34,978 nt of DNA from Craspedostauros australis (GCA_030167865.1 JALAGF010003220.1:1-34978); one strand, 5' to 3'; counted from the first letter of the stretch, positions 12,663 to 34,978 are shown. The notes: generated from the sequence alone by a model not told the origin. Program-made: numbers and translations.

Positions 12663-13981
12663 ATGGCTTTCTCACCCAAGGTGCTCTCCTCCACCACGAT
12701 CCTCGCCGCCTTGCTGGGAACCGCAACTCTGGCTGCAGGCGGATTCATCGCCTCATCTCCAACATGGCATCGTGGCGCTACCGATCGCGCAGCATCGAAG
12801 GTCAGCGGAAATGAGGACTCCATCTCGGTGGGTTTCATCGGCTTTGGCACCATCGGATCGGCCATCGCCAGAGGCATCGCCACGCAGACAGCCGTCAAGG
12901 TGGGATCGATCGCCGTCTCGCGACGTTCCAAGGCCAAGTCTTCCGCCGTGGCAGCTGAATTTCCGGACTTGGTGACCGTCCACGATGATAACCAGGAGAT
13001 TCTGGACAAATCCGATGTGGTCTTCGTGTGCGTGCTTCCGAGCCAAGGAGAGGAAGTGCTGGGGAAGCTCAACTTTGACAAACAACGCCATCAGGTTGTT
13101 TCCCTTCTGGTGAGTTGATATTGTGCTTTGGCGATGTCTGATGCAGTCGCCGGCAAGCCAACGATCACAGCATCTGCGTTATTTCGCAGGTGCCAAAATA
13201 CGCAGCAGCATTTGCAAAGGCACTATGTGAATGCTGGTTTATGCTTCTTGGCAGAGACGGGCGCATGCTGGCAAAAAAGGAAGGTCATACCGCACCCGCC
13301 AAGTGCAACGTTGGCTCATTCATAGTTGATTGCCTCTCTCTCTCTCTCTCTCTTTCAATTGTGCCATTCCCTTCGTCTTCCACACGTAACGCAATGCACA
13401 ACACACGTGTATGCGAATACTGCCATATCATCCACACTCCATGCCCACATGCACAGTCCACGGCAAAGGTCCCCGAGATTGTGAAGTACTGCAAACTGGC
13501 TACGCCCAGCGTGTCGAAGATGATCTGTTTACCCTCCGTCGCCAACCACCAGGGCGTGTGCTTGCATTGCGCACCCGCCGGCACGCATCCCAAGATCACG
13601 GCGCTGTTCGGTGCCATGGGCGGCGTCGTGACATTGAAGGACGAGAAGCAGCTGGCCGTGTCCATGATGACGACGTGCGTCATGGGTCCCATGTACGGTC
13701 TCATGCGCAGCGGTCGCGAGTGGCTCGTCAAGAAGGGCGGTCTGTCTCGCGAGGATGCCTCCTACCTCATGACGAAGCAGTGTTTGGGCATGTTGCAGGA
13801 TGCCGACAACGGATGCGACAATGCGAGTCGTTTGGATGATCTGATCGCGGAACAAACGCCGGGTGGTATCAACGAGCAAGCCCTCGCCAATTTGGAGAAG
13901 CTGGGTGGTTTGGAAGGCTTCGACAAGATGATGGATGCCATCCTTGGTCGAATCGAGGGAAGCACGGACGGGTCCGTTTAG
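12663..13981 (+). CDS. Pyrroline-5-carboxylate reductase-like protein; exons 12663-13109 and 13457-13981 (323 aa)
   Basis: Rossmann GFIGFGTIGSAIARG; DNQEILDKSDVVFVCVLP; C-terminal EQTPGGINEQAL dimerisation motif. Phase-0 intron GTGAGT...GCACAG joins VVSLL|STAK. Confidence 0.88.
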
Positions 13982-14763: not shown

Positions 14764-17047
14764 ATGTCGCAGGACAAGTACGAGCGCTTCGAGGCGTGGC
14801 TGCTGGAAAATGGAGCGCAGTTCGAGACGGTGAGTTCCTTCGCAGCATGGTGGATGCGGAGCGGAGTCTGATTGGCAAGACTGAGTCTCTTTTGATCAGC
14901 CGCACTTATGGCATTTGCTGCCGTCTTTCAAGCCGTTCGTTCATTCCCATTGCGATGGGCCTTTGCCATGCGCATCCATGCATTACATGTGTGTGGGTGT
15001 GTGTGTGTGGGTGTGTTCAGATGGATCACATTCAACTTCCAGTCCACATTACATCACATCACATTGCTTTACCATGCTATTCTATTCTAGTCTATTCGTA
15101 CATGCTTGACGATGCAACAGACCCCTCTCACCATGTCCTCTTTTGCGTCTCGGATTTATCCATCGCGGTACTTCGCTGTTTGTCATTCATGCGGTGGGTG
15201 GCTGCATGGGTGCACTTCGCCTGTCTCAATGCAACGACGACCGCATCTACGACTGCAACAACAGCTGGAGCTGAAAGAGTATGACACACCGCAGACGGAC
15301 AACGAGGAGGAGGAAAAGAAGGAGCAGACGCAGGTAGCCGCCAGCACGGAAGAGTCGGAGATGAGAGGCGTGCATGCGAGGGCCAACATTCCACCCAACA
15401 CCGTCTGCATGAGCATCCCACGCCAGTGCCTCATCACTGTGGAGATGGGACAGGACACTCCCATCGGACAGGCGATATTACGCAGCGACTTGGACCTGGA
15501 TGCGCCAAAGCACATCTTCCTCATGATCTTCGTTCTGTGGGATCGCAAAATGAATGGCGATCAATCCTTCTTCCATCCCTACTACGAAATCCTGCCGCAG
15601 ACGCTGCGCAACATGCCCATCTTCTGGTCCAACGAGGAGCTCAAGCATTTGCGGGGCAGCTACCTCCTGCAGCAGATTCAGGACCGCAACGACGCCATCG
15701 CCGAGGACTATCACTCCATCTGCCGCATCGCGCCCTTGCATCAGGTCTGCACGCTGGAACAATTCAAATGGGCGCGCATGTGCGTGTGCTCCAGAAACTT
15801 CGGCTTGCAAATCGACGGCCACCGCACATCGGCGCTGGTGCCGCATGCCGACATGCTCAATCATTACAGGCCGAGGGAGACCAAATGGACCTTCGATGAG
15901 GAACGTCAGGCCTTCACCATCACAAGGTACGTGGCTGCACGAGTACGCAATCACGTTTTATTTCATGCTCCATGCACAGATGTCTGCAAATACCAATATG
16001 TCTATGTCACAACATGCAGCCAATCAACCAACCAACTCACCTCTCAATCTCAATCTCATCCATTCCGATACCATCTCCATACCTTTCATTAACCACATGT
16101 TCACCATGCACAGCCTCCAATCCATTCCGGCGGGGTCGCAGGTTTACGATTCCTACGGACAGAAATGCAACCACCGCTTCCTGCTGAATTACGGATTCGC
16201 CGTTGAGAACAACCGCGAGCTGGACGGCTTCTGTCCCAACGAGGTCCCGATCGAGCTCAGCCTCAGTTCCGGCGATCCCTTGTACGTGCAGAAGCTTGAT
16301 TTTTGGATGAGAGGCGAGACCAACCTCAGCAGGGCCACGGCGGCAAAGCGAGTCCGCATCTGCGTCTCCAACAATGAAAATACGCGCCTCCTCTTCAGCC
16401 TCCTGCGTGTCATGAACAGCAATTCGGACGAGCTGGAGACGCTGGCCACCCCCATGACCGGCTCCATGCGATCCCTGTTTGTTCCAGATCACAGGGGTGG
16501 GCTCTCCACCCTCTACCGAAGCTGCCGCGATGTGCGCCACCCCATCAGCATCCGCAACGAACGTGCGGCACTGAAGCATTTGCACCAGATAATAACCGTG
16601 ACGCTGTCGCGATATCCGACCAAACTGCAGCAGGATATCGCGGACCTGAGGGTCAGAGCGATGTACCCGCCCTTCTCCAACAAACGGCACGCGAAGATCC
16701 AGATCCGCGGCGAGAAGGAGGTGCTGCATCATTACCAGCAGTGGGCAACGACGGGCTTGGAGATCCTGGACCTGATGGAGAAGGAACTTCAGGAGGAGCA
16801 GGAGCGCGGCGGCGTCGAAGTGCAGCTGGGCACCGGTATCCTCCACGAGGACCTGGCGCGGCGCAGCAGATACGAGCACGTCATGAGCTGCATGGAGGAG
16901 GACGACTCCAACTTTCATTCCACCATCGTGCGGTACTGCGCCGACGTGCTTGGCAGCCTCAGACGGGAGGAGTTCAAGAACATCCGTCAGAGCAGGACAG
17001 TCGTCGCGCCGGGGGGTTCGATCCTCAGCAGCAGAAATTTCTACTGA
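14764..17047 (+). CDS. SET-domain methyltransferase, SETD3/Rubisco-LSMT-like; exons 14764-14829, 15265-15926, 16114-17047 (553 aa)
   Basis: FEAWLLENGA; RGVHA; WARMCVCSRNF; LVPHADMLNH; QVYDSYGQKCNHRFLLNYGF; LSMT substrate-binding-like YPTKLQQD and IRGEKEVL. Introns GTGAGT..CAG (phase 0) and GTACGT..CAG (phase 2) keep frame. Confidence 0.92.
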
Positions 17048-22139: not shown

Positions 22140-24860
22140 TCAAGATCGATCGACTTTCGCCCGCTTTCTTTGCCGCACGGCGGCGACCACGGCAGGTCTA
22201 GGTTGGCGTGAAACTTCTGACGGCGTGTTGCCATCATGGTTGCGGATGTTGCGATCGACCTTCGCGCTGCATTGGATCATCTCCATCACGATGTCACAGC
22301 TTCCCCGGGCGCTCGCGCAGTGCAACGCCGTATTTCCAAAACTGTTTTGCACGTTCGGATCGATGCCCTCCACCGTCAGCAAGTAGTCGACCAATTCGTG
22401 GGCATTCTGCTTGGCCGCGCAATGCAGCGGCGTGTCCCCGTTCCTGTTCCGAAGGTTCACATCGGTCTTGACGTTGGCGGAATTTAGCAGCAGCTTCACC
22501 ATATCCACGTCTTCACGGACCAAATGCAACGGAGTGTCGCCGTCTTTGTTGCGCCACGTGGCATCGATGGACTCCCTTGCGTACGCCGTCCCAATCAAAA
22601 CCTGCAACCTGGGCATGTCACCGTGACGGCATGCCAGATGAACGGGCGTGTCACCATCATGGTTTGGGATGCTGGCGAGTGCTTGGGCTCGGTCCATCAA
22701 TTGGGTGATCATGTCGTTGGCTTCTCCGTAGCAGACATCGTTCAGTTTTCGGCTCGGCACCACGTCTCTCTGGAGGAAGTTATACAGATGAGACAGCTTG
22801 GCCGTGTCGTTCACGTCGAGCACGAACCCGCTGCCATAGGCAAGGTGCAGCGACGTGTTGCCTTCGTTGTTTTGCACGTTCGTGTTGATGTCGGCATTGA
22901 TGGAGTCGCATGCCATCAAGAAGTCGGCCATGTCGCTGCTTTTCTTCTTGCAGGCAACTTGGAGCGGGGTGTTGCCTTCGTTGTTTTTGATGTTGAGATC
23001 GATGGCGGGTTGCGGACATCGGAACAGCCACTGTGCCAAAGCGACGTGGTTGCCCTCGCAAATGAGATGCAGAGGTGTGTCTCCCATGCTGTTTTGCAGG
23101 TTGATGTTGGCGCCGGCTGGGTCGTGATGTAGCAAGCATTCGACCACATCTCTGCGCCCATTCACGCAGGCGAGATGGATGGGTGCATCTCCGTCGTTGT
23201 TTCGAATGCTGGCGCTTGCGATGGTTGTCGCGGCGGCGGGACCAGCCTTCGCTCGCAACAGGCATCCGACCACCTCGTCGTGCCCAGCGGCGCAAGCAAG
23301 ATGAAGAGGCGTGTCGCCCATCGTGTTCTGAGCGTTGACATGAACTTTGGTGCCGTCGAGCTGCACCAGGTATCTCACCACGCCCTTGTGCTTGTTCACA
23401 GCTGCATGATGGAGCGGCGTGTGGCCGTGGAAATCTCCAATGTTCGCATCGGTGTTGATGCGATCGCATTCCAGCAGCATCTTCACGGTATGCATGTGCC
23501 CATTGCGACATGCGTAATGCAAAGGCGTGAGACCTTGCTTGCACTGGATGCTTGCGTCAATATCACCATCGATAAGCCGCAGCCAACATTCGATCAAATC
23601 GACGTGACCTTCCGAACAAATGTAGCGGAACGGAGATAATCCATCGCGATTGCAAGCGTGAAAGTCGACGTTGCGGATGCGGTTGGGATGCAAGAGAAGT
23701 TCGACCACGGCATGCTTACCACGCTGGCAGGCAAGGATCAAGGGCGTATTGCCTTTAATATCTTGAACGTTGACATCCACGGCGGCGCGATCCGAGTTGA
23801 TCATGAGCCGAACTAATTCTGCGGAGCCATTCCGGCAGGCGAAGTGGAATGGCGTCATCCACTTGCAGTTTCTGATGTTGGCGTTGATGTTGATGTGAAC
23901 GGTGCTGAGCAGCCATTGCACCACCCTCAGTTGGTTGTTCAAGCAAGCGAGATGGAGCGGCGTGTCACCCCAATTGTTCTTTGCTTGCATGTCTATGCCA
24001 GCTGGATCGCATCGTAGCAAACGTTCGGCGATGCTCACACGCCCAGTCCGACAGGCATGATGAAGCGGCGTATTGCCCACGTGGTTTTGGACGTTCAGAT
24101 TCTGGTTGAAGGTATCGGAGCCCAGCAACAGTTCAAGAATATCCAAGTAGCCCTGCTCACAGGCGATGTGTATCGGCAGGTTGCCGTCGCAGTTTGGAAT
24201 GTTGGGATCGATGCCATCAGTCTGCAACAGGAGTTCGACGATGCTGCGTGACCTGAGGTGACAGGCAACGTGAAGCGGCGTCTCGAGCATATCATCCTGC
24301 TCATTGACATCGATGGTCGTTCGCTGCGATTGCAGCAAGAGCTTCGCAACATCGGCATGCCCGTACCAGCAGGCTGAGAGAAATGGGGAGCATCCATTGC
24401 CATCCCTCGCGTTGACATCGACGTTAGCGTAATTGGACCGAATCATGAATTCCACAAGACTGGTGTGCCCCTTTGTACAAGCGGCCTGGAGTGGCATGTC
24501 ACCCTGGCTGTTCTGCAGGTTGGCATCGACGGCGGCCGTGAGATTGCTGGTGGCAGGATCGCAGCCCAGCATGTATTTCACCATATCCGTGTGCCCGCGG
24601 AAGCAAGCGCGAATCAGCGGTGTGTTGCCCACATGATTTTGCACGTTGGGATCGATGCCGATTTCGATGGAATCGGACTGGAAGATCCATGCAACCACAT
24701 GCGTGTGGCCGTTGCCGCTTGCGAGATGGAGTGGTGTGTTGCCCGAGGAGTTGCCGGCGTTCATGTTGACGGCAACCTCGCTGGACTCCACCAACGAAAT
24801 CAGCTTCGCCAAGTCACCCGACCCGCAGGCATGGTAGATCTGCGCATCGAGAGCAGCCAT
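22140..24860 (-). CDS. Ankyrin-repeat protein, ~23-24 repeats, single exon (906 aa)
   Basis: Repeated GNTPLHLAC..G...V..LL...D.N units across the ORF; likely start MAALDAQ at 24860; basic C-terminus RQRKRAK. Confidence 0.92.
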   Translation of the reverse strand: MAALDAQIYHACGSGDLAKLISLVESSEVAVNMNAGNSSGNTPLHLASGNGHTHVVAWIFQSDSIEIGIDPNVQNHVGNTPLIRACFRGHTDMVKYMLGCDPATSNLTAAVDANLQNSQGDMPLQAACTKGHTSLVEFMIRSNYANVDVNARDGNGCSPFLSACWYGHADVAKLLLQSQRTTIDVNEQDDMLETPLHVACHLRSRSIVELLLQTDGIDPNIPNCDGNLPIHIACEQGYLDILELLLGSDTFNQNLNVQNHVGNTPLHHACRTGRVSIAERLLRCDPAGIDMQAKNNWGDTPLHLACLNNQLRVVQWLLSTVHININANIRNCKWMTPFHFACRNGSAELVRLMINSDRAAVDVNVQDIKGNTPLILACQRGKHAVVELLLHPNRIRNVDFHACNRDGLSPFRYICSEGHVDLIECWLRLIDGDIDASIQCKQGLTPLHYACRNGHMHTVKMLLECDRINTDANIGDFHGHTPLHHAAVNKHKGVVRYLVQLDGTKVHVNAQNTMGDTPLHLACAAGHDEVVGCLLRAKAGPAAATTIASASIRNNDGDAPIHLACVNGRRDVVECLLHHDPAGANINLQNSMGDTPLHLICEGNHVALAQWLFRCPQPAIDLNIKNNEGNTPLQVACKKKSSDMADFLMACDSINADINTNVQNNEGNTSLHLAYGSGFVLDVNDTAKLSHLYNFLQRDVVPSRKLNDVCYGEANDMITQLMDRAQALASIPNHDGDTPVHLACRHGDMPRLQVLIGTAYARESIDATWRNKDGDTPLHLVREDVDMVKLLLNSANVKTDVNLRNRNGDTPLHCAAKQNAHELVDYLLTVEGIDPNVQNSFGNTALHCASARGSCDIVMEMIQCSAKVDRNIRNHDGNTPSEVSRQPRPAVVAAVRQRKRAKVDRS

Positions 24861-25954
24861 GGTTGTTGACTCAAGAGTGTCGGCAGTTCCCTGCTTGGAA
24901 AGAAGCGCGGTTGGATCCCGTCCAAAGCATGCGTGGCAGGCGTCAAATGTGTAGTGTGTGATGTAGTGTGTGATGTATTTTATTTCGCAACACATGCACA
25001 ATAGTGTGGGGACAAGACAACGGAGTGGTGTGAGTGTCAAGACGATGCACAACATCCCATCGAGCAGAGAGACAGACTCCTATTAGATAGCGATGACATC
25101 CTCGCATGGTACGAGTGTTGCCATCGATGCAACAAGAGCGTCACAGAGCAACACGAGACGAACAACGCCAACGGACTCACTTGTGCGGTGGCGAATGTGA
25201 GATGTTGATGTCTTGACAGCTTGATGGCACTTGGATCTGCTGATGTACTCGTATAAGTGGTATGAATCGATGAATGGGATGCGTTGCGTTGCGTTCGGGG
25301 TGATGTGCGATGACGGGATGGACACGAAAGTGGAGCGTTTGCAAGTGAGCACACTTGGTGATCTTCGGGGGCAGGACGTCGATGTTGTGCGGTTGGCAGT
25401 TGGTGTGTTGTTGGGGTTTTGCCTTTTCGGTGGGGTGTGGGCAGAACTGTGGCAGTTGTGTGCCGTAGGGTTTGTACTGGTGACACCACGCACGAAAAAG
25501 AACCAGAATTACGAATGTGCAACAACGCTGATGGGCAGGTCATCTGTTGTTGATGTTCTTTTCTGTCCTTGCCTCCAGAACAAGACGAAAATGTCCCCAC
25601 TCGTGACACCACGGAGGCGAACATTGGAAAGCCAAGCACGACTCGTGCGACTAAATCGCGAAATGAAAGTGCAACAAATAAAACATTATTGTCTATTTTG
25701 CCGCATCCAACAACAAGAAACCATGTAATTCGCTTGTCCGTCACCTGTTGAATCATCATGGACTCCAGCGCTTTAATACTTATTCTACCGTTACTCTTGT
25801 GTTTGCCTGTATGGACAATATTTGTTGGGTCAACAGTAATCAACAAAGGGTTGAAAGTTATTTGAACAGTCTCGTTTCTGCTTTGGTGAACGAGACCTTG
25901 ACAGAGGACTGGGGAGGGGATCGACATCGTTGGGCAACACAGGAGCGCCCTGTA

Positions 25955-28900
25955 ATTTGACCACACGCGAGTCAGATATCCACGGAGAATTTTGCGTCAG
26001 GGTGAAAACAAAATAAGCCTCAACATGTAGATTTAAGTTGGTGCGATTCCTGCATCGACTAGTTCGATTTCTTCTGTCTTTTCCTTTTGCGTTCTGATCT
26101 GCTGCTGTTGTGATTTTGCGCTGTCTCTCGCGTTGTCTCTCGCGTTGTCTCCCTTTCTTCTCCTCCCGACAACAACTACAGTATTGTTGCTGCACAATAC
26201 ACCTGTTCACATTGATGCTCCTTCCATGACCTCTCTCCAATCACCATTGGTCCTCCTTCCACTCAGGACTTCCCCCCAACTTCATGTTGACATCAGACTA
26301 TCTGCTCCTGCTCCTGCTTTCTCCGCAACTAACTTTCAACCATGGCATCTGTGAACAAGGGCAACCACCTCAACACAATCCAGGCCATCAAGAACGACTT
26401 TGCTGATGCTTGTGCCACCAACACCATTGATGCCCCACACCTTCTCCATGATGGTATCGGCGAACATGATCACCATCTCAACGACCACGTTCATGTTGCC
26501 TCCATCTGCAGCGATGACGAAAGTGTTGTCATGGATCCATCACCCCCTCCGCTTGTCGGTACGTTTGGTGTTCGACCTTCCACGAGTCATGGTTGCACCC
26601 ATTGCGTCATCCTTTCTCCGCCAAAGGACAGCAGAAGGGGTTTCATGGAGTGGCATGTAACTTGTCCTGCCGCTCATGGAACCACTGTCACTGCTAGCGG
26701 CACCCATATTTTGTCCTTGGCTCAGCTTTGAATGGAGGTCCAGACCACTTGTCAATGTGGGCTCCAACTGTTTCCAAAGCCTCTCCCAGGAAGGGGCCCT
26801 TTTGTGCCCACCTCGCACAACCTTGTGCGCCGCATGCTGGGAGCTTCGTCTTCCATCTTTGTTGATGCGTTTGGACCAGGGGGTCTGAGCATCCCCCTGT
26901 GGCAGCTATGCAAGATTTTTTGTATGAATTCTTGGCTCAGATGATGTTGGGGTGCATCACCAAATGCCTCTACGACTCTGATGTCATTGTCAAGCTTGAT
27001 GCATTTCCATCCAAGGAGTTGTACGTTGTCACCTGGAGCAACATCAGGGACAACGGGGACACTCCATCATCAGGAGGCCATCGGTTCCTTTGGACAGAGT
27101 TGGAGAAGGCATTCAACCAAAGCCTTCCATAGATCTGTCTGAATCATGGTAATGGTTGTCGAATCGTCACTCTTGATGACAACTTGGTCCATTGCCAGAG
27201 TCACACTGACAGAAGTTGCTTGCTTGTGATGCAACATGCTTATGCAAACCGTGATGGATAAGTTCTATCTTGCATGCTTGTGTTTGGCAATGATTGTCTC
27301 ACTTTTCTTACACCATCTCATTCCATTCTCCTTCCTTCCTCTCTCCTTGTTCACTTCTTCCATGTGTTAGCATACAATTGAATAACCTTGTGCAGCGTGT
27401 GTCAGGTCTTGTTGCTGGCCTTGCTGCATCTCATGACAGTCCTCATGACAACTACTTGGCCCTCCTTTCCCAACTGGGACAGGCTGATGGAAGTCTCCGC
27501 AATATCATGCTTATGGCGAACCGCGGCTTCAACACCGAATTGAGTTCGCGCGACCTCATCAGCAAGGACGCAGACTTTGAAGGAATGCACATGCGTCATG
27601 CCCACCTGCCCTTTATCTTCGACAGCTGGACCACACCAGGAAACCCACAGATGGACGTCGGAAAGCACGTCCCGCGCAAACTTCAGATAGCAGTGACAAA
27701 TAGCATGGGGAATAAACAATTCACTCTCTATTCTTACCACCACATTCTGAAAACCGTGTTGGCTGTTGGCACCAACGCTGCTTCATTTGAGTGGGACCTC
27801 AATCTAGAGAATCCTCGCGACCAACAAATGTACACCAACATGGTCAACAGGAAAGACAAACACAATCGTCAGTCCGAGCTGTGCCCACACTTCTTCCAAC
27901 ACTGAGTATCCAATACTAACCTATCGCCTGCAATGAGGGCAGCAAGGATGCTTGGCAACGATGAAACAGACCAACCCGACCAAACAGCCATCGACAATAA
28001 AACTGCAGCCTGGGCGGCACAGATTTGGGATCTCCAGGTGGAGGGTCTCACATGCGAGCAGAGCGGCCATCTATGGTTCATGCAGAGGAGGTTTGTTTTC
28101 ACAAGCACCTCCACGTCTACCATGATCAAGGCCATGCTTGACAATGGCGAGTGGTTGAACTCCAAAAAATCCTGGCGTATTCAACAAAGCCACTTGGGAA
28201 CATGTCAGCACATACATGGGGTTTGATATTTCTGGAAAGGCTGAGACATATGCCAAGGATTTGAGTGCCGAAAGGACAATGCTGAAGGCACTCACCACAT
28301 ACCAACAACTGACAAATCCAGTCCATGATTCAACTGAGTTGGAAGCTTGGCTCGAAACCAGTGACAACAACATCAACATCAATTCAGACTCCAATCTAGC
28401 TGCCCTTATGCAGCTCTTCTACATGAGCAAAGTCCATCATAGTGGAACAACAAACTACACCATGCTGCATCGGATTATGGCGCAGCACGAAAAGACCTGG
28501 CAGCACTTCGTTGCTCTTGCCAACATGTCCCTCAAGAAGGATGTCAAGGAACAGCTACCAAAGGCCAACTTGTCCCAAGACACAAGGATGACTCTGCTCA
28601 ATAGAATGGTGGCATTGACCCTCACCAATATGACAAGGCAGCTGGAGACACCATCTGTTGTCAAGGAAGACAATGACATGCCATGGATGGAATCATTGAA
28701 GCATAGGCTTACAATGACAATGCTACAATCATGGTTCATGAAAGGAGTGAAGGGGAAAGCCGCGAAGAACGCAAAGTTGGGCCATACATGTGAGATCCCA
28801 CTGATGAAGAAGGCCATGGAGTGCGTTGGAGTGGGAAGCTCTGGCAATTGTATCAACGCAGGGTACTGTGTTGGCCTTGTTGCAAAGAAAGCTGTTCCCT

Positions 28901-31900
28901 ACACTTGGGCATCCATTGATTTCCTGGCTATTGTGGGAGACCCTGACAATGACGACAACAACGAAGTCTTCGTCGTCAAGATGAAGACTCAGGCGACAAC
29001 CAAAACAGAGGAATTGGAGAAGACACATCTTTGTGAAGCAAGTAGGACTACCAGGACTGATGAGGATGCTCATGTGTTCCGAAAAGTGCAGGACAATGTG
29101 TGGCACGTGCAATATTGGAAGCAGTGGGAAATGGTACAACTGCTGCATTATTCATTTGTTTTCGGAGTGCCAGGCACGATGATTGTAATTGGCATTTTGT
29201 TTCCTGAGGCTGGCACGTATGTGTCGCTGAAAGCGTGTATTGCAAAGCGGCAGGCCCAACATGATGTGATCACGAACATCTCTGTTCCTTCATTGCTCTT
29301 GTCACCACCATTTGTGCACTTGGTGTGTTGGTAGGCGATTCAACCGGTAACGTTCTAAGATACATGTCCACGAGGTTCTCAGCTTCGTTGATGTTGTGTT
29401 TAGGAATGGTGCTTGGCAACTTGTATCGCTTGACATTGGACTTCGCGTACACCAACATTGATACCAATCCAACTTTGACATCCTCTGGAGCAATGCTCGA
29501 GAAGTATCTACTTTCGAAGAGATCTGGCAGCAAACAGTCTTCGGGTGGTCACCACATCACAGCACTGAAGAAGGATGATGTGTTCCATCAGTTGTTGATC
29601 TGGAAGGCATGCCAAGAACTGCCTACCCCAGTTCCAAGAGTGCATGTGTTCGTCCCTGCTGTAATATTGCGATAGAACGCCTTCAAAGGGGGGTCAGATG
29701 TTATCCAGGCAGTCCTCAAGAGTGGCGAGTGGAGCAACCCGGACAGCAGCGCCATGTCTTCAAACGAGAAGCATGGGAAGACGTCGAACAGTACATGGGA
29801 TTCGACGTCGCTGGGACGCCAGAAGCATACATGGTGAATGTAGCTCAGCAGAAACACGGATTTGTAGCGTCCTAGTTTCACACAACGCTGACCAATCCTA
29901 TGTATGACTCCCAAGATTTGGAACGATACATGCGTACCGTCGTCGACGAAACAGAAGATGACGATGAAGCGATGCCCATTGAAGTGCTCACTGCCATGAT
30001 GCGCTGATTCTATGCAAGTCGGATCAGGTGCAAACCCTCCACCCTGCAAGCGATGCTTGGAAACATCCTGGACGAACCAGACAAGCTGAGATGGAGGTTC
30101 ATGGCCATGAACGCGGCGACATTGAAGAAGCATATTAGTCTGCGCTTCCCAACACAAACGGAAACCGACACATTCAACAAATGAATGATTGACCGGCTGA
30201 TCGCAGCGACTATGAACAAGCCGAGCTCGAAGGAGGAGGGAACAACACCAGTTTCTGACGACAAGGCTGACACACCCTGGATGTCATCATTGACAACTTC
30301 ATTGGCGTCAACTATGCTACAAACCTGGTTCATGATGCCACTTCACGGGAAAGCAGCGAAAGATGCGAAAGCGGGCCACAAAACAAGGTTCTGTTGATAC
30401 GGAATGCAATGGAGACCAAGAGAGTGGATGGCAAGCATTTTCGAATCAAGGCAGCATATCGGTCAGGGCTGGTACGCAGGAAGGATGACAGGTATGCCTG
30501 TGCTTCAGTGAACTTCCTTGCTGTGGTGGGAGACCTAGGCAGCACCACCACAGATGGATTTTTTTGGTTGAGGTGAAAACTAGAACCAACACCACAACGC
30601 AAGACATGGAGACAGCACACCAGCAGGGCGCGCAGGTGCGTGGTGATCTTGGAGAAGGGAATTATGTGTTCGTGGAAAGGCAAGACCAATGCTGGCTGGA
30701 GGTGTTCCAAAGGCAGTCGGAAATGATTTAACTGTTGCATCATTCATATGTTTTCGGAGTTCCAGGGGCGCTGATGGTTATCAGTAAGCATTGGTGTTCG
30801 GTTCGTGCACCGGATGGTTGTTTGCAACCGCAGTCTGGACTCGATTCTCACCCCACTACTTCTGTTTTCTTCCCATCCTTGCATTCGTGGCACACCTGGG
30901 GCCTCTTTTGGAGCAGGTGATGCCATGGGGAACGTAATCCAGACTATGGCAACTAGGTTGAATCGCCTCTCATCCAATCCTATTGCACTGTGCTAAATGC
31001 CTCCACAAGCTCATGTTGATGTTTGCATGCACAGAGGCCGGAACAAAACCAACCACACCTCCATCCAGGAAGTTTCTGGAAGACTACCTCCAAACCAAAC
31101 GGAATCCGCACAAGAGGGGTTTGGGAGGGTCTAGCGTGGCTCATCTCACAAGAGAAGACGTCCTGCATGACTTGTTGATATATGCAGGGCCAGTCAAGAC
31201 TTGCCTTCTCCGGTTCCAAGAGTGCATACGTTCATCCCCGCAATCATTTCACGCTGGAACGAGTTCAAGGGTGGATAAAACGTGGTCACCCGCATGATAA
31301 GACAGAACCAGGCCCGCCCACTGCGCCCCATGTTCCAATGCAAGATTGTGTCGCGATTGATGAAAGTCATGATCATCACACTGCACAAACTCCTGCAGTA
31401 CTACTGTATGAAGGATATCCATACAAATGCAGATCTGGAGAAGACTCCAACTATTCATCACTTCCACTGCATGTTGAATGATTGCCAAGGGCTTGTTTCA
31501 TCAATTTGGCAAATCCAAGACACTCTTGGCAGCTGGGCCAGTTCTCTGAAGGACAGAGAACAAGACAATCGAAGCAGACTACAACGCAAAGCAGCTATTG
31601 CGGTACCAGCCATGGAGGCGCCAGTGGAAAGCGCAGATCGCGCCACTGAAGGGAGAAGGACAGATGTAAACAAAGTGACAGACTGTCGATCGGTATGGAG
31701 ACTGCTGTCGGAAGGTTTGGAGGTGACGACGGAGAAAGGTTCGGGCATGAACAGGCATGTTTGCGAAGGCAACCATGGTCCAGTGTATCTGGTGTCAAGA
31801 AGGTGCACATGTGTTGTCTGCAGTGTCTTGACTCCATGGATATGCATGGAGTGCCACCTCCATGCATGTGTTGCACCCACAGCACACCATGGAAGGTGGA

Positions 31901-32630
31901 TGCAGTACTGCGGTGTCGAAACAACAGTCACAATGTGCCAGCTTTGACACAACAACAAAGGGCTAGAGGCAAGCAACACTTGCTTCCGCCTTCTTCACGG
32001 AAAGGAGCGAACTTGGATTTGCAAGACGGCACAAACCTTTGTGAAGTAGAACAAGAAGAACAAGCCATCGAGAAGAAACAAAGCTGTAGAGGGCATGCCA
32101 GATGGAGGAGAGCCAGACTCCAACCGAAATACAAACGAACAGGGCGCAATGGAGGAAAGTCACAACATTAACAGAGTTTCAGCGAGGAACACAGTTTCGA
32201 GAAGGAAGCGAGCTGTGGCAAGCATATCGGACGAAGCAGAACTGGACAGCAGCCGAAAGGCAGGCAACTGTTGCACAATGAAGATACCACACCACATAAC
32301 AACAAGATTGAGAGCAACAGCCAAAGAGATGGCATCTCGGAAGCATGAAAGGACTCTGGAGGCTGCGAAGGCATCACCCCAGCGCTCCCTGCGCAATCAA
32401 CAAGGCATTTTTGAAGCGGCAATGAAACGGGAGGTGGAGCGGAAGGAAGATCTCTGAAGGGAAACGCCAGAGATGTAAAATCTGAACAGAATAGCAAATG
32501 TTGATGGAATGAAGTTTAGACCTTCGAAACTGCACGAGGATCGACAATGGACAGCGCATTGCAAACAAAAGACTGAGCAGAAAATCTTTAAATAAACCTA
32601 TTTAGATGACGACCATTCCATGTGGTCAAT
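25955..32630 (+). mobile_element. Decayed piggyBac-like DNA transposon with embedded YqaJ/lambda-exonuclease domain; ends uncertain
   Basis: Reconstructed motifs IVTLDD (27163-27180), NRDG|IQL..L...SG, MANRGF (ADRG-like), (W)NAFKGGSD (29673-29699), C-terminal CVVC..CMEC..C..CF..LH; YqaJ motifs lie between. Strong CpG depletion, many stops and frameshifts. Confidence 0.8.
26342..32457 (+). pseudogene. Transposase-YqaJ pseudogene with introns at 27258-27370, 29192-29334 and 30784-30916
   Basis: Colinear plus-strand ORF fragments joined across in-frame stops (27130 TAG, 27903 TGA, 29673 TAG, 31945 TGA) and frameshifts. Two intron donors appear decayed (ATAAGT, GCATTT). Confidence 0.75.
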
Positions 32631-32880
32631 CAGAAACAAGTCTCAGGACGCAAGGTTTTGGGAGCTGTTTGTGGCTGTTGCTTCCTGCACCGTCCGGCTC
32701 TTTTGTTACTCATGGATAAATACGACGGACATACCGCCAATAGAACGTCATTACGTTTCGAATCGAGTCCCGCGTAGTCTTGCTTTGTCTTCAAGCAATA
32801 ATTTGAATTTGAGTGGACGTTATATTAGCGTTACACATGTCGGTCTGATTCCATGTCAGACAGCACAGTTGGTGTGTCAC

Positions 32881-32997
32881 GGGTCGATTCAGAACGGATT
32901 CAGACTTTCAGAACGCATTCAGACTTTCAGAACCGATTCAGAAGGAAGTCAGTACTTCGAACTTCTGACTTTCTTCGTTCTGATTCTGAACCCATAG
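32881..32997. repeat. TTCAGA-rich repeat/hairpin block A
   Basis: Tandem 19-mer ATTCAGACTTTCAGAACNN x2 plus partial copies; hairpin GAAGGAAGTCAG...CTGACTTTCTTC. Confidence 0.85.
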
Positions 32998-33553
32998 CGG
33001 GCCTTGGCGTGATTGCCAAGGAACTTCGCCCGGTAACACACACAAGCCTCCTTCTGATTGGTGGCTTCTCCAGGCGCATCACTTCAAATCGTGTTGTTCG
33101 TCCATGCAGAAACAGGAATTCTCTTCTGTACACAAACGCGAACACAAAGAGTGACAGCCAAACACTGGCAGCAACATCAACAGCATGATCGGAGTCAAAG
33201 TAGCTTGGCGCCAGAAAAGATAGCGTGGGCGGTGTGGCGGTGGGTGCTAACATGTTGCTCTCCTCAGAATCCTTTTCTTGGTTGAATGTCATCACATCAG
33301 CCATCGAAAATCGAAGAGCATTTACTTGCGATATGATGTGTGAAATTAGCAAGCGTGCAGCAACAGCAACAGTAACAGTACCAGCGACGATGGAGTAGCT
33401 ATCAATGATGTGCATGTGGACGCTTGGCAGCAAACAACAAAGAAGTGGTTGTTGTGTTGCCAACTTGTTGTGTGTGGAAGGCGTTAATCGGCGTTAATCA
33501 CTATGTTTCAAATGATGACGATCTTGTGGAACACTGGACTTGTGTCCACAATA

Positions 33554-33633
33554 GCATTCAGGCTTTCAGAACCGAGTCAGAACTTCAGAAGTTCTGATTC
33601 TGAATTCAGAATGAGCGGTCGATTCAGAACGGG
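33554..33633. repeat. TTCAGA-rich repeat/palindrome block B, related to block A in direct orientation
   Basis: 33554-33582 matches 32915-32943 at 27/29; 33617-33632 equals 32882-32897; palindromes at 33577-33597 and 33597-33612. Confidence 0.85.
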
Positions 33634-34312
33634 CAGTTTGGTTCAGGACTGCGGGAGGAAGACGCCCAAGTGTTCCGTGTTGGTTGGCCTGTCTTGCTCT
33701 CAGACCGTTATAATATTGATCACAACGTTATTTTCAGTATCCAAGTTTGTCTCCACAGAATTGAAACGCGAACCCAGCAAACTGATGATAAAGTAGCTTA
33801 ATGGGTCGATCACTCGACAGTCTCATTTATCCACAACTAACAAAAGTACAGGATGGTGCTGACACAATTGTTCGGCGTTATCGTGACAAAAAACCTTGTG
33901 GATATTGCAGTGGTGTTACCGTCGTTCCGGCCTATTCAAACACGCCAGCCAGCCATCAAAGAGCAGTGACGTTAGCCAGAACGATTGAAGCGCGATCAGA
34001 TTGTTCACGATCTGACCTGCGTGTGGTCAAATCACCACGCACAAGCAATCGAAAGCAGACGCGAGAACAACGTTCCTGGACAGTGAGGACGCAGCAGGAC
34101 TGTTACTGTTGCATCGTCACCATTGAGACGATACTGCTGTTATCCATCCATAAAACCCATTTTATGTTGATCCATCCGTTCCAAGCGACAAGTCAAGAAG
34201 TCTCAAATCAAAAGGTCTTCGCTGTTGCCATTGACGCCGATCAGAAATACGGACACACCAGTTCGCGCCATCGTCATCGTTTTCGATACCGTCATTGCCT
34301 CCTCAGCGAACC

Positions 34313-34978
34313 ATGCCCGTCATCGGTTTGAAGGGAAAACGCCTGGGAGCCTCAGGCTCCATTTCACCCACCTCGATGGTGATGATCTCCATCCTCATCA
34401 GCATCGTCTTGCTGCAATTCTTTTCCCCCCTGCGGAATGATGACATCCAGTCCGTGGATAAGGCAGTCGCCAGTCAGGCGATGGTCGTCGGCCAGTCAGC
34501 TGTCGAGGTACCGTACGATCCTTTGGCGATCCCAGCAGGCCACGCGCAACCTTTGCCGTCCATTCGAACCACCAAGGAGGAAGAGCAACAAATAGTTCGC
34601 AAGCAATACGGAGGCAAAGGTACGACGAATTGGCGCGAGAGTTGTTGAATTGGAGACTGGAGGTTTGGATGGATGAGTGTATGAGTGTATGAATGCATGG
34701 ATGCACACGTGGGCGCTTGGGTGGATGCAGGGATGATTTTCGAATCGAAGTTGCTACTCTACGATTTTTGGTATGCTGGATGGAGCTTGCCTTTCCTCCT
34801 GAGTTCAGGACAGCAAATGTCGTGGTGTGCTACGTTGATGTGTCCTCTCTTGTTGTGCTCCGCCACCTAACTCTCCTTGATGCTTCGTGCAATCCACTTT
34901 CTGTTGCCTCGCCATGCCTCGCAATGCCTCACTGATGTCCATCATCTTTTTTCCGATCAGGCGACAAAGCACATCTCG
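34313..34978 (+). CDS. 5' part of a type-II membrane-anchored protein, possibly a SAM-methyltransferase-like family; exons 34313-34619 and 34961->34978
   Basis: TM segment MVMISILISIVLLQFF; phase-1 intron GTACGA...ATCAG joins RKQYGGK-G-DKAHL. The family guess is from memory of similar diatom proteins; any catalytic domain lies outside the window. Confidence 0.7.

Follow-up and report, generated by a model that had tools for sequence, protein, structure and literature searches.

A gene relic in Craspedostauros australis points to a family of probable piggyBac-like transposases with an embedded lambda-exonuclease-type nuclease

A stretch of 34,978 nucleotides from Craspedostauros australis (GCA_030167865.1, JALAGF010003220.1:1-34978; hereafter the window) carries on its plus strand, at about 26342-32049, what its sequence identifies as one gene relic, a dead and partly duplicated copy of a transposase gene. 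By profile matching, the relic belongs to a eukaryotic family of ~1,200-aa proteins without a Pfam name, in which a nuclease of the lambda-exonuclease/YqaJ type very probably lies inside a piggyBac-like DDD transposase, in one polypeptide. It is the relatives and a predicted structure that support this architecture, rather than the window copy, dead and internally duplicated as it is. As an overall explanation, we consider it likely that the relic is a dead copy from such a piggyBac-like transposase family, with an embedded exonuclease that would act through resection. A literature search found no paper describing this layout.

A profile HMM built from 49 relatives, with the window sequence excluded, was searched against six-frame fragments of the whole window. 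It matched colinearly on the plus strand from 26911 to 31893 (E-values in order along the window in Table 1), and outside the relic it reached fragments only at E >= 1.1. Because the colinear matches go down to E 7.2e-36, the series of motifs is not a product of chance. The preliminary description, which had read a piggyBac-like transposase interrupted by a YqaJ domain from motifs in the DNA, located all of these motifs correctly in three-frame translations, from IVTLDD through to CFRLLH (31981-31998). It had also suggested looking for Pfam DDE_Tnp_1_7 and YqaJ; at E <= 1, Pfam assigned no transposase or YqaJ family to any of the 17 ORF pieces of the window, and four of the 17 had unrelated matches below the cut-off. 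A word-index search with the 391-aa ORF of the window found no match, and an exhaustive search with the same ORF retrieved 51 proteins at E <= 1e-3. Further searches returned 29 proteins with residues 60-500 of the member P0030 and 36 with the family profile. For nuclease unit 1, an Atlas feature search led to YqaJ clusters (0.94).

The window copy cannot be functional, as it combines 11 in-frame stops (terminal stop not counted), several frameshifts and substituted catalytic residues (D to N at D2 and E to K in the E-x-K of nuclease unit 1) with a tandem duplication of the segment from the nuclease to D3. The ratio of observed to expected CpG falls to 0.57 in the relic; it amounts to 1.03 in 1-25000 and to 0.91 in 32050-34978. 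An 800-bp scan along the window mapped this depletion, which is consistent with long-term methylation of a silenced repeat. The CpG-depleted zone itself gives our best, approximate estimate of the extent of the element. Among 2 x 5 TTAA pairs around this old copy, none enclosed inverted termini, the score of the best pair being reached by 170 of 1000 shuffles.

Table 1. Features of the relic from 5' to 3', with window coordinates; profile positions refer to the HMM of the 49 relatives
Feature	Coordinates	Strand	Basis
CpG-depleted zone, coincides with the relic	26000-32400	none	CpG ratios and 800-bp scan
Probable coding start, ATG 26342, frame 1, to in-frame TGA 26729	26342-26730	+	matched by eye only
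N-terminal helical region	26911-27126	+	profile positions 112-180, E 1.3e-6
RNase H-like first strand, D1 block IVTLDD(N) 27163-27180	27139-27257	+	profile positions 185-226
Intron-like gap, 113 nt, NRDG to IQL	27258-27370	+	sequence and frames; putative intron
Rest of catalytic fold and beta-rich insertion domain	27371-27902	+	profile positions 248-388, E 4.3e-11
Nuclease module start, motif I	27996-28184	+	profile positions 400-459, E 2e-8
Nuclease unit 1	28294-29193	+	profile positions 516-791, E 7.2e-36
Intron-like gap, 131 nt, ...MIVIG to VLVGD...	29194-29324	+	flanking pieces overlap at profile positions 788-791; putative
Linker, nuclease core to D3, unit 1	29325-29663	+	profile positions 788-884, E 3.3e-9
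D3 motif, first copy, R(TAG)NAFKGGSDV	29670-29702	+	frames, repeat spacing, tblastx pairs
Nuclease unit 2, heavily decayed	29703-31170	+	four profile pieces and motifs
Linker 2 end and D3 second copy	31171-31284	+	profile positions 863-894, E 2.4e-6
Post-D3 helical region and C-terminal Cys-rich domain	31285-32049	+	profile positions 898-1090, E 4.5e-10

At the 5' end, a 'PP...EW' stretch resembles by eye the conserved P50/W55 of the family, and the family profile is not significant over 26342-26730. The N-terminal helical piece has its counterpart in helices that precede the RNase H fold of a modelled relative, and an in-frame TAG follows it at 27130. The first-strand piece has an E-value of 0.45 taken alone and is colinear with the remaining profile matches; in its D1 block the window reads DDNL against the invariant DDDK of the family. 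The 113-nt gap is pyrimidine-rich, ends in AG and begins with AT in place of GT, and the family reads NRKGI across this point. In the D2 block, MANRGF at 27513-27530, Asn (27519-27521) stands for the invariant Asp of the family (SDRGY), and an in-frame TGA at 27903 closes this piece. Motif I of the nuclease, WFMQRRFVFTST at 28074-28109, lies within a longer string quoted in the preliminary description (family pattern W...R.FS.TSS), and a frameshift comes after it, at about 28150-28190. Nuclease unit 1 sits inside the 391-aa open frame (28159-29334), with GHTCE at 28780-28794, ASIDF at 28909-28923, VKMKT at 28975-28989 and QLLH at 29137-29148; in VKMKT, Lys (28978-28980) takes the place of the invariant Glu of E-x-K. 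Towards the 3' end, the Cys-rich tail shows CTCVVC (31804-31821) and W.CMEC (31843; CMEC at 31843-31854) in addition to CFRLLH, with an in-frame TGA at 31945 and the terminal TAG at 32047.

Repeat families and tblastx pairs reveal that about 1585 bp of the relic (~28110-29695) are repeated in tandem at ~29695-31280, with a spacing of 1578-1594, so that the nuclease unit and the D3 motif are each present twice. The single nuclease of the preliminary description is thus present as unit 1, but a second, heavily decayed one had been overlooked. Similarly, its D3 at NAFKGGSDV exists but sits on the joint of the repeat, and the D3 at 31252 had been missed. It is this latter copy, not the one at 29670, that runs on into the C-terminal region; downstream of the first copy, the sequence is like that after motif I and unlike that after D3. 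The first copy has a TAG at 29673 in place of the invariant Trp, and the second, RWNEFKGG(TAA)N at 31252-31281, has a stop at 31276 for the Ser codon and Asn for the invariant Asp. Unit 2 is matched by profile positions 611-664 (E 1.1e-4), 654-718 (1.3e-7), 723-769 (8.8e-3) and 774-794 (0.6), with in-frame stops at 29873, 30005, 30182, 30729 and 30994 and at least 4 frame changes. Its motifs are AGHKT at 30371, ASVNF at 30502 (Asn for the invariant Asp), VEVKT at 30567 (E-x-K kept) and (TAA)LLHH at 30729 (a stop for the invariant Gln), and its equivalent of the 131-nt gap, at about 30784-30911, begins with GTAAGC and ends with CAG. The two units are identical in 78 of 158 shared profile columns, and in a global DNA alignment they score 0.64 against 0.625 for shuffled sequence. 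Having diverged to the level of shuffled sequence, they are not explained by a simple, recent duplication within the gene and subsequent neutral decay.

The preliminary description had proposed a single polypeptide, and for the family this holds: of the 108 fetched members, 18, each about 1150-1350 aa long, carry the whole layout in one ORF, defined as one match from profile positions <=33 to >=1112. The only organism named at source for a member is the diatom Chaetoceros tenuissimus. Intact members begin with a helical N-terminus, followed by an RNase H-like fold, whose first strand bears an invariant DDDK and whose fourth is followed by an invariant D (SDRGY), and by an all-beta insertion domain after the fifth strand. 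Then comes a module of ~500 aa with the lambda-exonuclease/YqaJ fold and invariant W...R....TS, GH..E, D, E-x-K and Q, in which ~220 aa of helices and acidic low-complexity sequence separate motif I from the nuclease core. After the module, a strand leads to a helix, which Gly-Gly connects to another helix opening with an invariant Asp (WN..KGGSD), and the C-terminal part has more helices and a Cys-rich, zinc-finger-like tail.

Conservation, counted in the numbering of the member P0056, extends to both sets of motifs. In D1, D229, D230 and K232 are found in 32/32 and D231 in 31/32, and in D2, D314 and R315 in 32/32. In the nuclease, W475, R479, T484 and S485 of motif I are present in 35/35, G719, E723, D767, E784 and K786 of the core in 41/41, H720 in 40/41 and Q828 in 40/40. 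In the D3 element, W949, K953 and D957 are kept in 40/40; past D314 and outside the nuclease, D957 is the sole invariant acidic residue, the runner-up being E410 (19/31). The C-terminal Cys and His are invariant or nearly so across the family, and the tail gives weak Pfam matches to B-box, Tc5_C and zf-UBP in 4-9 of 49 members. In one member, P0071 (719 aa), the profile match breaks off after positions 6-385 and resumes with 886-1128; aligned to the full-length P0068 (residues 70-438 and 935-1184), it misses exactly the 496-aa module, in frame. Since P0071 is nested among nuclease-bearing members in the tree, it is best read as a secondary loss or a splice form, not as the ancestral state.

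An AlphaFold2 model of P0056 (49-sequence alignment; pLDDT 86.7, pTM 0.74) has an order of strands and helices that fits the RNase H fold, with D229 on strand 224-234, D314 just after strand 309-313 and an all-beta insertion domain at 347-413. G954-G955 connects helix 944-952 to helix 955-965, which contains D957, and the nuclease module separates this helix-GG-x-D-helix element from the beta-rich insertion domain. In Foldseek, the piggyBac transposase of Trichoplusia ni tops the PDB matches of the model (6x67_C, E 4e-5, 333 columns), so that a piggyBac-type RNase H fold does flank the YqaJ region, and Tn5 (1muh, E 7.5e-5) and piggyBat (9c0f, E 4e-4) are also matched. Lambda-exonuclease folds are matched at probability 1.00 (3slp, 3sm4, 6m9k, 1avq and 3syy), 3slp with E 1.1e-2 and a TM of 0.51 on target. 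A fold search of BFVD gave an IS4-family transposase from a giant virus (E 2.5e-5) and phage COG5377 and YqaJ exonucleases (from E 3.4e-5). The C-terminal 269 residues modelled alone (pLDDT 84.8) had 0 PDB matches at E <= 0.001, the best having E 1.0.

Sequence methods place the family less readily. Pfam DDE_Tnp_1 appears in 5 of 49 members, weakly and once above the cut-off (P0058, E 2.8e-5, 24.4 bits against 23, residues 211-299, between D1 and D2), and YqaJ in 2 of 49 at E <= 10, the best being P0073 (E 0.017, 15.9 bits against a gathering threshold of 22). DDE_Tnp_1_7 was absent from 30 members at E <= 0.1, from 26 matches at E <= 0.01 and from the 25 families listed for the 49 members, a list standing apart from 17 single-member families. 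Thus, the family does not enter Pfam's piggyBac family by any sequence method. A profile search of all PDB sequences yielded no transposase or exonuclease, P0071 alone as a query found nothing, and an NCBIfam scan of the family gave noise only. At the fold level, the model suggests that piggyBac and Tn5/IS4 are about equally close to the family, and the term 'piggyBac-like' is therefore owed in part to the GG-x-D element and to the Cys-rich tail. With this reading of the term, the relatives and the predicted structure support what had been proposed from the relic, a piggyBac-like DDD transposase with a Cys-rich tail and an internal nuclease.

Several known systems share parts of this layout. 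The available description of the piggyBac cryo-EM structure reports an insertion domain after the fifth strand and two helices with G444 and G445 between them and D447 in the second (PMC7351741). As far as that description goes, piggyBac and the family both have helices ahead of the RNase H fold and, behind its fifth strand, an insertion domain made of beta strands. They also share a pair of helices connected by Gly-Gly, with the third Asp of a predicted all-Asp triad in the second helix, and the Cys-rich tail of the family may correspond to the C-terminal cross-brace zinc finger of piggyBac. In contrast to piggyBac, the family has its ~500-aa module between the insertion domain and the Gly-Gly helices, is ~1,200 aa long against 594, and lacks a Pfam DDE_Tnp_1_7 match. 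From the model, we infer that D957, the Asp after Gly-Gly, is the third catalytic residue, in which case the nuclease interrupts the catalytic domain, and its insertion point would be where piggyBac passes straight from the insertion domain to the D447 helix. IS4/Tn5 also have an all-beta insertion domain besides their fold and DDE_Tnp_1 matches, but their third acidic residue is Glu where the family has an invariant Asp, and the family is eukaryotic, with introns, a Cys-rich tail and an embedded nuclease. With lambda exonuclease and YqaJ (PF09588, COG5377), the family shares the fold, the invariant D...E-x-K and Q (D767, E784, K786, Q828) and the N-terminal Arg/Ser motif; in the family, however, the domain is embedded in another enzyme and scores below the Pfam YqaJ cut-off.

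Other transposons combine the same two activities in different arrangements. KolobokE, of a superfamily reported from diatoms, has a DDD/E transposase and a lambda-exonuclease-like PD-(D/E)xK nuclease in one protein, as the family does, but by its published description, as available, the nuclease is downstream of the transposase domain rather than embedded, and Kolobok has a C/DxxH and zinc fingers inside the catalytic region (PMC9587614). Neither is found in the family: from D314 to residue 470, no Cys reaches 50% anywhere and the only His to do so is H404 (18/32). On the missing C/DxxH signature and D2-to-third-residue zinc finger, membership in Kolobok was rejected. ISL2EU (PHIS superfamily) is likewise a cut-and-paste DDE transposon carrying a YqaJ exonuclease, yet in the accessible accounts YqaJ is a second, separate ORF beside a PIF/Harbinger-like transposase with THAP, and the element has been reported only in animals (PMC4482050, PMC4122938). 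Membership in ISL2EU was also rejected, as the family has one ORF, piggyBac/Tn5 folds and no Pfam THAP match in its members. Tn7 pairs a PD-(D/E)xK nuclease, TnsA (listed in PMC3424549), with a DDE transposase, TnsB. These are separate bacterial proteins, however, and TnsA is restriction-endonuclease-like, not lambda-exonuclease-like.

We infer that the family is, or was, a cut-and-paste transposon. Its DDD site would cut and join the 3' ends of the element, as in piggyBac/IS4, and the built-in 5'-3' exonuclease would then resect the 5' strands at the double-strand breaks made by transposition, at the donor gap, the excised ends, or both. This resection could steer repair to homology-directed copying, by which the donor copy would be preserved. 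Given the architecture, we hold this role of the nuclease to be nearly an even matter, leaning slightly against. It is doubtful, though conceivable, that the family is a new piggyBac/IS4-like transposon lineage whose built-in exonuclease makes transposition dependent on resection or replaces the hairpin step. In the former case, the element could, for example, excise and resect its own ends or the donor gap in the same complex, forcing homology-directed refilling of the donor, and a cut-and-paste enzyme would behave replicatively; in either case, the pathway would be one not known for any DDD/E transposase.

In Tn7, the 5' ends are cut by TnsA, and the cutting and joining of the 3' ends fall to the DDE protein. 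The nuclease of the family might similarly make the second-strand (5'-end) cut and replace the hairpin step of piggyBac/Tn5, which we regard as unlikely. The module lies inside the catalytic region, adjoining the D957 helix, a position that would bring the two active sites close; both sets of catalytic residues are invariant, and PD-(D/E)xK nucleases do serve in transposition, TnsA being listed in the accessible text (PMC3424549). However, by fold the module comes closest to exonucleases that work processively 5'-3' (lambda exonuclease, LHK-Exo, YqaJ and COG5377 phage proteins), not to restriction-like endonucleases. In lambda exonuclease, the Arg equivalent to that of W...R....TS holds the 5' phosphate of the DNA end, so the invariance of this motif suits an end-dependent exonuclease. 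Moreover, that ISL2EU and KolobokE, of unrelated superfamilies by their available descriptions, recruited a like nuclease in other arrangements better fits a generic role after cleavage. It is less likely still that the members are domesticated host genes, for example in repair or programmed rearrangement, with the window copy as a dead paralogue. Such genes would account for the missing terminal inverted repeats and target duplications (TTAA pairs of the relic), for the conservation of all catalytic residues down to 19-25% identity to P0056, which indicates long-term selection, and for a conserved phase-1 intron in one subgroup. An active transposase is also under selection, though, so conservation does not discriminate, and the window copy is decayed, CpG-depleted, rearranged and beside ordinary host genes, which is what a dead transposon should look like. 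Many of the clusters formed at 90% identity contain more than one member sequence (up to 27), the tree has many shallow, closely related lineages, and internally deleted or duplicated derivatives exist (P0071, and P0075 with a repeated profile stretch).

The embedding itself would disappear if the nuclease were a C-terminal add-on as in KolobokE, the catalytic domain being complete before it and WN..KGGSD forming a separate downstream domain. The insertion domain has, in its last strand, a conserved Trp followed by an acidic residue (E410, with D in some other members) that could then be catalytic, and the C-terminal fragment alone has no PDB match, but we find this improbable: E410 varies among members and is part of a beta strand instead of a helix following the insertion domain, whereas the invariant D957 is two residues past the Gly-Gly joining two helices, like D447 in the available description of piggyBac (PMC7351741). 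In P0071, without the module, the insertion domain is ~35 residues from WN..K.GSD, and the signatures that the available Kolobok description gives, a conserved C/DxxH and a zinc finger separating D2 from the third residue, are missing (PMC9587614). Finally, motifs arising by chance, or a piggyBac copy invaded by an unrelated YqaJ gene or element, would suit the silence of Pfam on the window pieces and the empty word-index search with the 391-aa ORF. This reading is almost certainly wrong, refuted by 18 independent full-length proteins with the same order of parts in one ORF and by the colinear profile matches to the window (E down to 7e-36); nor do the intact relatives carry YqaJ as a separate ORF. 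As for names in use, the preliminary description had named a piggyBacX lineage as a possible relative; the RepeatMasker label 'DNA/PiggyBac-X' occurs once in a preprint, in its accessible text.

The decayed transposase-like gene copy in the window (hereafter the relic) belongs to a family of ~1,200-aa proteins which, judging from a structural model, appear to be built, and probably to work, like a transposase of the piggyBac/IS4 type combined with a lambda-type exonuclease. The family has a defined domain order, two conserved sets of active-site residues and two folds. Conservation picks out one transposase-like and one nuclease-like set of catalytic-looking residues (Table), the former including three presumed catalytic Asp blocks, D1 to D3 (D229/D230, D314 and D957), and the tail's Cys and His residues show full or almost full conservation. 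The numbering is that of P0056 (1198 aa), hypothetical protein CTEN210_09822 of the diatom Chaetoceros tenuissimus, the only organism that a source names. An AlphaFold2 model of P0056, made from an alignment of 49 members, reached a pLDDT of 86.7 and a pTM of 0.74, and Foldseek matched it in the PDB, in this order, to the piggyBac strand-transfer complex (6x67_C, E 4e-5, 333 columns), Tn5 transposase (1muh, E 7.5e-5), piggyBat (9c0f, E 4e-4), lambda exonuclease (3slp, E 1.1e-2, probability 1.00, TM 0.51 on the target, rmsd 4.0 over 189 columns) and LHK-Exo (3syy). With piggyBac as the top PDB match and lambda exonuclease also matched, the fold search supports the two domains proposed from motifs in the preliminary description, a piggyBac-like DDD transposase and a YqaJ/lambda-exonuclease domain. 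Among predicted viral structures, the same model matched an IS4-family transposase (E 2.5e-5) and many COG5377, YqaJ and PD-(D/E)xK exonucleases (from E 3.4e-5). A model of just the C-terminal 269 residues matched no PDB entry (best E 1.0). A hAT-type DUF4371 assignment for a 203-aa ORF (an Atlas lead, 0.87) was rejected, because piggyBac and Tn5 rather than hAT came out of the fold search.

Sequence methods point only weakly to a transposase or nuclease identity. Pfam DDE_Tnp_1 was found in 5 of the 49 aligned members, above cut-off once (P0058, 24.4 bits, E 2.8e-5, residues 211-299), and YqaJ in 2 of the 49, below cut-off; NCBIfam gave noise only on the same 49. The family profile matched only low-complexity SEC31 and zinc-finger entries among PDB sequences, and P0071, a 719-aa member, matched none (0 matches). 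By sequence the family falls outside the Pfam piggyBac and YqaJ families, and by fold and motif it falls within them.

The preliminary description had also placed the nuclease inside the catalytic domain, and the model, the conservation of D957 and a nuclease-less member together support this reading. As described in the accessible text of PMC7351741, piggyBac has an insertion domain that follows its fifth strand, and a pair of helices joined through G444 and G445, with D447 on the second helix forming the triad together with D268 and D346; residues flanking the catalytic domain form a helical domain, and the Cys-rich domain is terminal. The family model has a corresponding insertion domain, and Gly-Gly helices predicted to carry the third Asp, with the nuclease module between them (Table). 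Outside the nuclease, no acidic residue past D314 other than D957 is invariant; E410 comes next, in 19 of 31 members, and lies on a strand. P0071 matches the profile over 6-385 and then 886-1128, and in the full-length P0068 (1208 aa) it is residues 70-438 and 935-1184 that align with it; therefore, exactly the 496-aa module is absent from P0071, in frame. In a FastTree phylogeny of the N-terminal domain (55 rows, 286 columns; 53 of the 108 fetched proteins excluded, with <80% of columns filled), P0071 and P0066 are sisters (support 88), both inside a clade with P0067 and P0068 (support 96). P0071 is thus nested among nuclease-bearing members, which makes it a splice form or a product of secondary loss rather than an ancestor.

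When the 391-aa ORF at 28159-29334, the longest piece of the relic, was searched exhaustively with HMMER, 51 proteins were returned at E <= 1e-3 (best 5.4e-34), and four matches of ~1150-1350 aa had a long N-terminal extension; in a Pfam scan of 26 of the 51, none had a transposase or nuclease family at E <= 0.01 (22 without any family, 4 with one unrelated sub-cut-off match). Residues 60-500 of P0030, one of the four long matches, as a query gave 29 proteins and a profile search 36, with no Pfam domain annotation listed for any of these 65 rows. In total 108 proteins were fetched, one family member being an MMETSP transcript, and the profile was built from 49 of them. One uninterrupted match from profile position <=33 to >=1112 was found in 18 of the 108, the remainder being fragments, and this full layout in a single match rules out a nested foreign gene as the source of the nuclease. 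Among the fragments, 20 fetched proteins end near profile position 423 and 7 begin near 420 (split models: P0084-P0108, P0005, P0019, P0032, P0044 and P0079-P0081). Of the 20 N-terminal fragments, 19 end in T(L/I)RQG plus a short junk tail starting with K, E or M, and the 7 C-terminal ones begin with junk followed by TADW. Such ends are as expected from ORF callers reading into a phase-1 GT...AG intron in a Gly codon, and therefore these are not two-gene forms. This putative conserved intron coincides with the 5' boundary of the nuclease module, and the window copy has no intron there.

As for the most likely mechanism, the DDD site would cut and join the 3' ends of the element in piggyBac/IS4 fashion, and the embedded nuclease may then resect the 5' strands at the resulting breaks. 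The accessible text of PMC7351741 gives piggyBac and IS4 one common reaction path with hairpin intermediates, and that of PMC3424549 describes lambda exonuclease as binding double-stranded ends and processively digesting the 5'-ended strand, leaving a long 3' overhang. Were the donor gap resected, its refilling by homology-directed repair from the sister or homologue would be favoured, and the donor copy kept. Mechanistically, the chief alternative is that the embedded nuclease makes a TnsA-like second-strand cut. A nuclease of the same kind has, according to the accessible sources, been recruited by ISL2EU as a second ORF and by KolobokE downstream of its transposase domain, and its recruitment in these other arrangements argues for a generic post-cleavage role. 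The family does not belong to ISL2EU, and Kolobok membership was likewise rejected.

A natural piggyBac relative whose catalytic domain incorporates a 5'-3' exonuclease would show how transposases recruit end-processing, and it would join ISL2EU and KolobokE as a third, independent case in which a cut-and-paste transposase is combined with a nuclease of the lambda-exonuclease type. Genome engineering makes major use of piggyBac, and the way it leaves donor sites undamaged is of central importance there. The family would provide a ready-made fusion for testing whether coupled resection affects the outcome of donor or target repair. It is common in marine protist data and yet lacks Pfam annotation. 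The accessible portions of the literature on piggyBac, YqaJ, lambda exonuclease and diatom transposable elements describe no piggyBac-like catalytic domain interrupted by a nuclease, and those of a 2025 survey with >13,000 mined piggyBac sequences mention no such fusion (PMC13461360). The name 'piggyBacX' was not found in the literature searched; 'DNA/PiggyBac-X' is a RepeatMasker class, found as a label only in the portions covered. If PiggyBac-X is this family, the name exists, and we found no published description.

In the window, the remains of one long gene occupy ~26342-32049 on the + strand, in eukaryotic nuclear DNA with ordinary host genes; Rfam and tRNA scans of the window gave no match. 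All the motifs in the preliminary description were found at their positions in the window translation. Pfam, which it had proposed as a check (DDE_Tnp_1_7, YqaJ), gave no relevant family for 17 translated ORF pieces of the window, and a word-index homologue search with the 391-aa ORF scored 0 of 2002 candidates. Because neither recognised anything, the motifs alone could be a wishful reading. A family profile built without any window sequence, run on six-frame fragments of the window, matched them colinearly (Table), and nothing in the rest of the window scored better than E 1.1. The match in the nuclease part is partly by construction, since the window's own ORF served to gather the nuclease relatives; the relatives for the N-terminal part were gathered with P0030, which makes its matches independent. 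The relic is closest to diatom-type sequences.

Features of the window (nucleotide positions) and of the family protein P0056 (residue positions)
Feature	Position	Strand	Detail
XPB/ERCC3 helicase ORF	2676-5042	+	Pfam; CpG content normal
Pyrroline-5-carboxylate reductase dimerisation domain	13142-13981	+	Pfam; CpG content normal
Rubisco LSMT substrate-binding domain	15554-17047	+	Pfam; CpG content normal
979-aa ankyrin-repeat ORF	22140-25079	-	Pfam; CpG content normal
Profile match	26911-27126	+	profile 112-180, E 1.3e-6
Profile match	27139-27258	+	profile 185-226, E 0.45
Profile match	27429-27854	+	profile 248-388, E 4.3e-11
Profile match	27996-28184	+	profile 400-459, E 2e-8
Profile match	28294-29193	+	profile 516-791, E 7.2e-36
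Profile match	29325-29663	+	profile 788-884, E 3.3e-9
Profile match, second, weaker pass	29906-31275	+	profile 494-894
Profile match	31285-31893	+	profile 898-1090, E 4.5e-10
Relic in-frame stops	TGA 26729, TAG 27130, TGA 27903, TAG 29673, TAG 29873, TGA 30005, TGA 30182, TAA 30729, TAA 30994, TAA 31276, TGA 31945	+	
D2 Asp to Asn	27519	+	family-invariant residue
Unit 1 Glu of E-x-K to Lys	28978	+	family-invariant residue
Unit 2 nuclease Asp to Asn	30511	+	family-invariant residue
Trp before D3 copy 1 to stop		+	family-invariant residue
D3 copy 2, stop and Asn		+	family-invariant residues replaced
Unit 2 Gln to stop		+	family-invariant residue
tblastx repeat pair	28177-28359 / 29756-29938		
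tblastx repeat pair	28648-28785 / 30242-30379		
tblastx repeat pair	28936-29190 / 30528-30782		
tblastx repeat pair	29598-29729 / 31180-31311		
P0056 transposase-like residues	D229, D230, K232		32/32 each; D231 31/32
P0056 transposase-like residues	D314, R315		32/32
P0056 transposase-like residues	W949, K953, D957		40/40
P0056 nuclease-like residues	W475, R479, T484, S485		35/35
P0056 nuclease-like residues	G719, E723, D767, E784, K786		41/41 each; H720 40/41
P0056 nuclease-like residue	Q828		40/40
P0056 model, first strand	224-234		carries D229
P0056 model, fourth strand	309-313		D314 directly after
P0056 model, fifth strand	333-337		then all-beta domain 347-413
P0056 model, nuclease module	475-486, 743-859		motif I, helices, core sheet
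P0056 model, strand and helices	938-943, 944-952, 955-965		strand, helix, G954-G955, helix with D957

The window copy of the family gene is dead, and matters only as a pointer to the family. Its reading path contains 11 in-frame stops plus the terminal TAG at 32047, and changes frame near 26880, 28170, 30385, 30545 and 31195. Several of the stops and catalytic-residue losses are reachable by a single G-to-A or C-to-T change. The CpG observed/expected ratio is 0.57 in the relic versus 1.03 in the 25 kb to its left and 0.91 to its right; the depleted zone covers ~26.0-32.4 kb of the window, with values of 0.33-0.62 over most of the relic, 0.83-0.87 around 29200-30400 and ~1.0 in the flanks, and TpG/CpA is raised in it (1.53 versus 1.27). 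This CpG loss would fit the deamination of a methylated, silenced repeat.

In addition, ~1585 bp of the relic is repeated in tandem, a feature absent from the preliminary description. The order is D1, D2, motif I (the W...R....TS start of the nuclease module), nuclease 1, linker, D3 copy 1 (29670-29702), nuclease 2, linker, D3 copy 2 (31252-31281) and C-terminal region, the joint falling directly after 'GGSDV'. Direct-repeat families in the relic have a spacing of 1578-1594, and identity across the four tblastx pairs is 38-54%. The two tandem nuclease segments, unit 1 and unit 2, agree in 78 of 158 shared profile columns, and either agrees with other family members in <=32%, except for P0001 (45% with unit 1, 38% with unit 2). 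A simple recent internal duplication is doubtful, as despite this protein-level agreement the units, aligned globally as DNA, are no more alike (identity 0.64) than shuffled sequence (0.625); blastn aligns only three short segments between them, at 70-81%. From these comparisons, the repeat would be of old origin, or else the junction of two copies from one sub-lineage that had already diverged. An intron-like gap lies at the same place in each unit (29194-29324 and ~30784-30911), and therefore the repeat arose at the DNA level. A repeat resembling that of the window copy was also seen in P0075 (1605 aa), upstream of the nuclease core, where the protein matches the profile twice over 505-644 (stretches 14-644 and 505-1144).

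No convincing TTAA-flanked termini were found around the relic. A 26-nt inverted repeat (25952-25977 / 34010-34035, 23/26 complementary, 8 kb apart) brackets it and, by a rough estimate, is unlikely to have arisen by chance. It was not counted as a terminal repeat, since its right arm lies 1.6 kb beyond the CpG-poor zone, it has no target duplication beside it, and it was judged from a single copy. Elsewhere, a 12-nt tandem repeat, GCGTTGTCTCTC, is present in 2.8 copies at 26118-26151, and the probable ATG (26342) lies ~200 bp downstream of it. A perfect 32-nt palindrome lies at 192-223 (a self-match on the opposite strand), and the 19-nt unit TTCAGAACGGATTCAGACT occurs in 2.9 tandem copies at 32888-32942, with a further 29-nt copy of this repeat at 33554-33582, 640 bp downstream.
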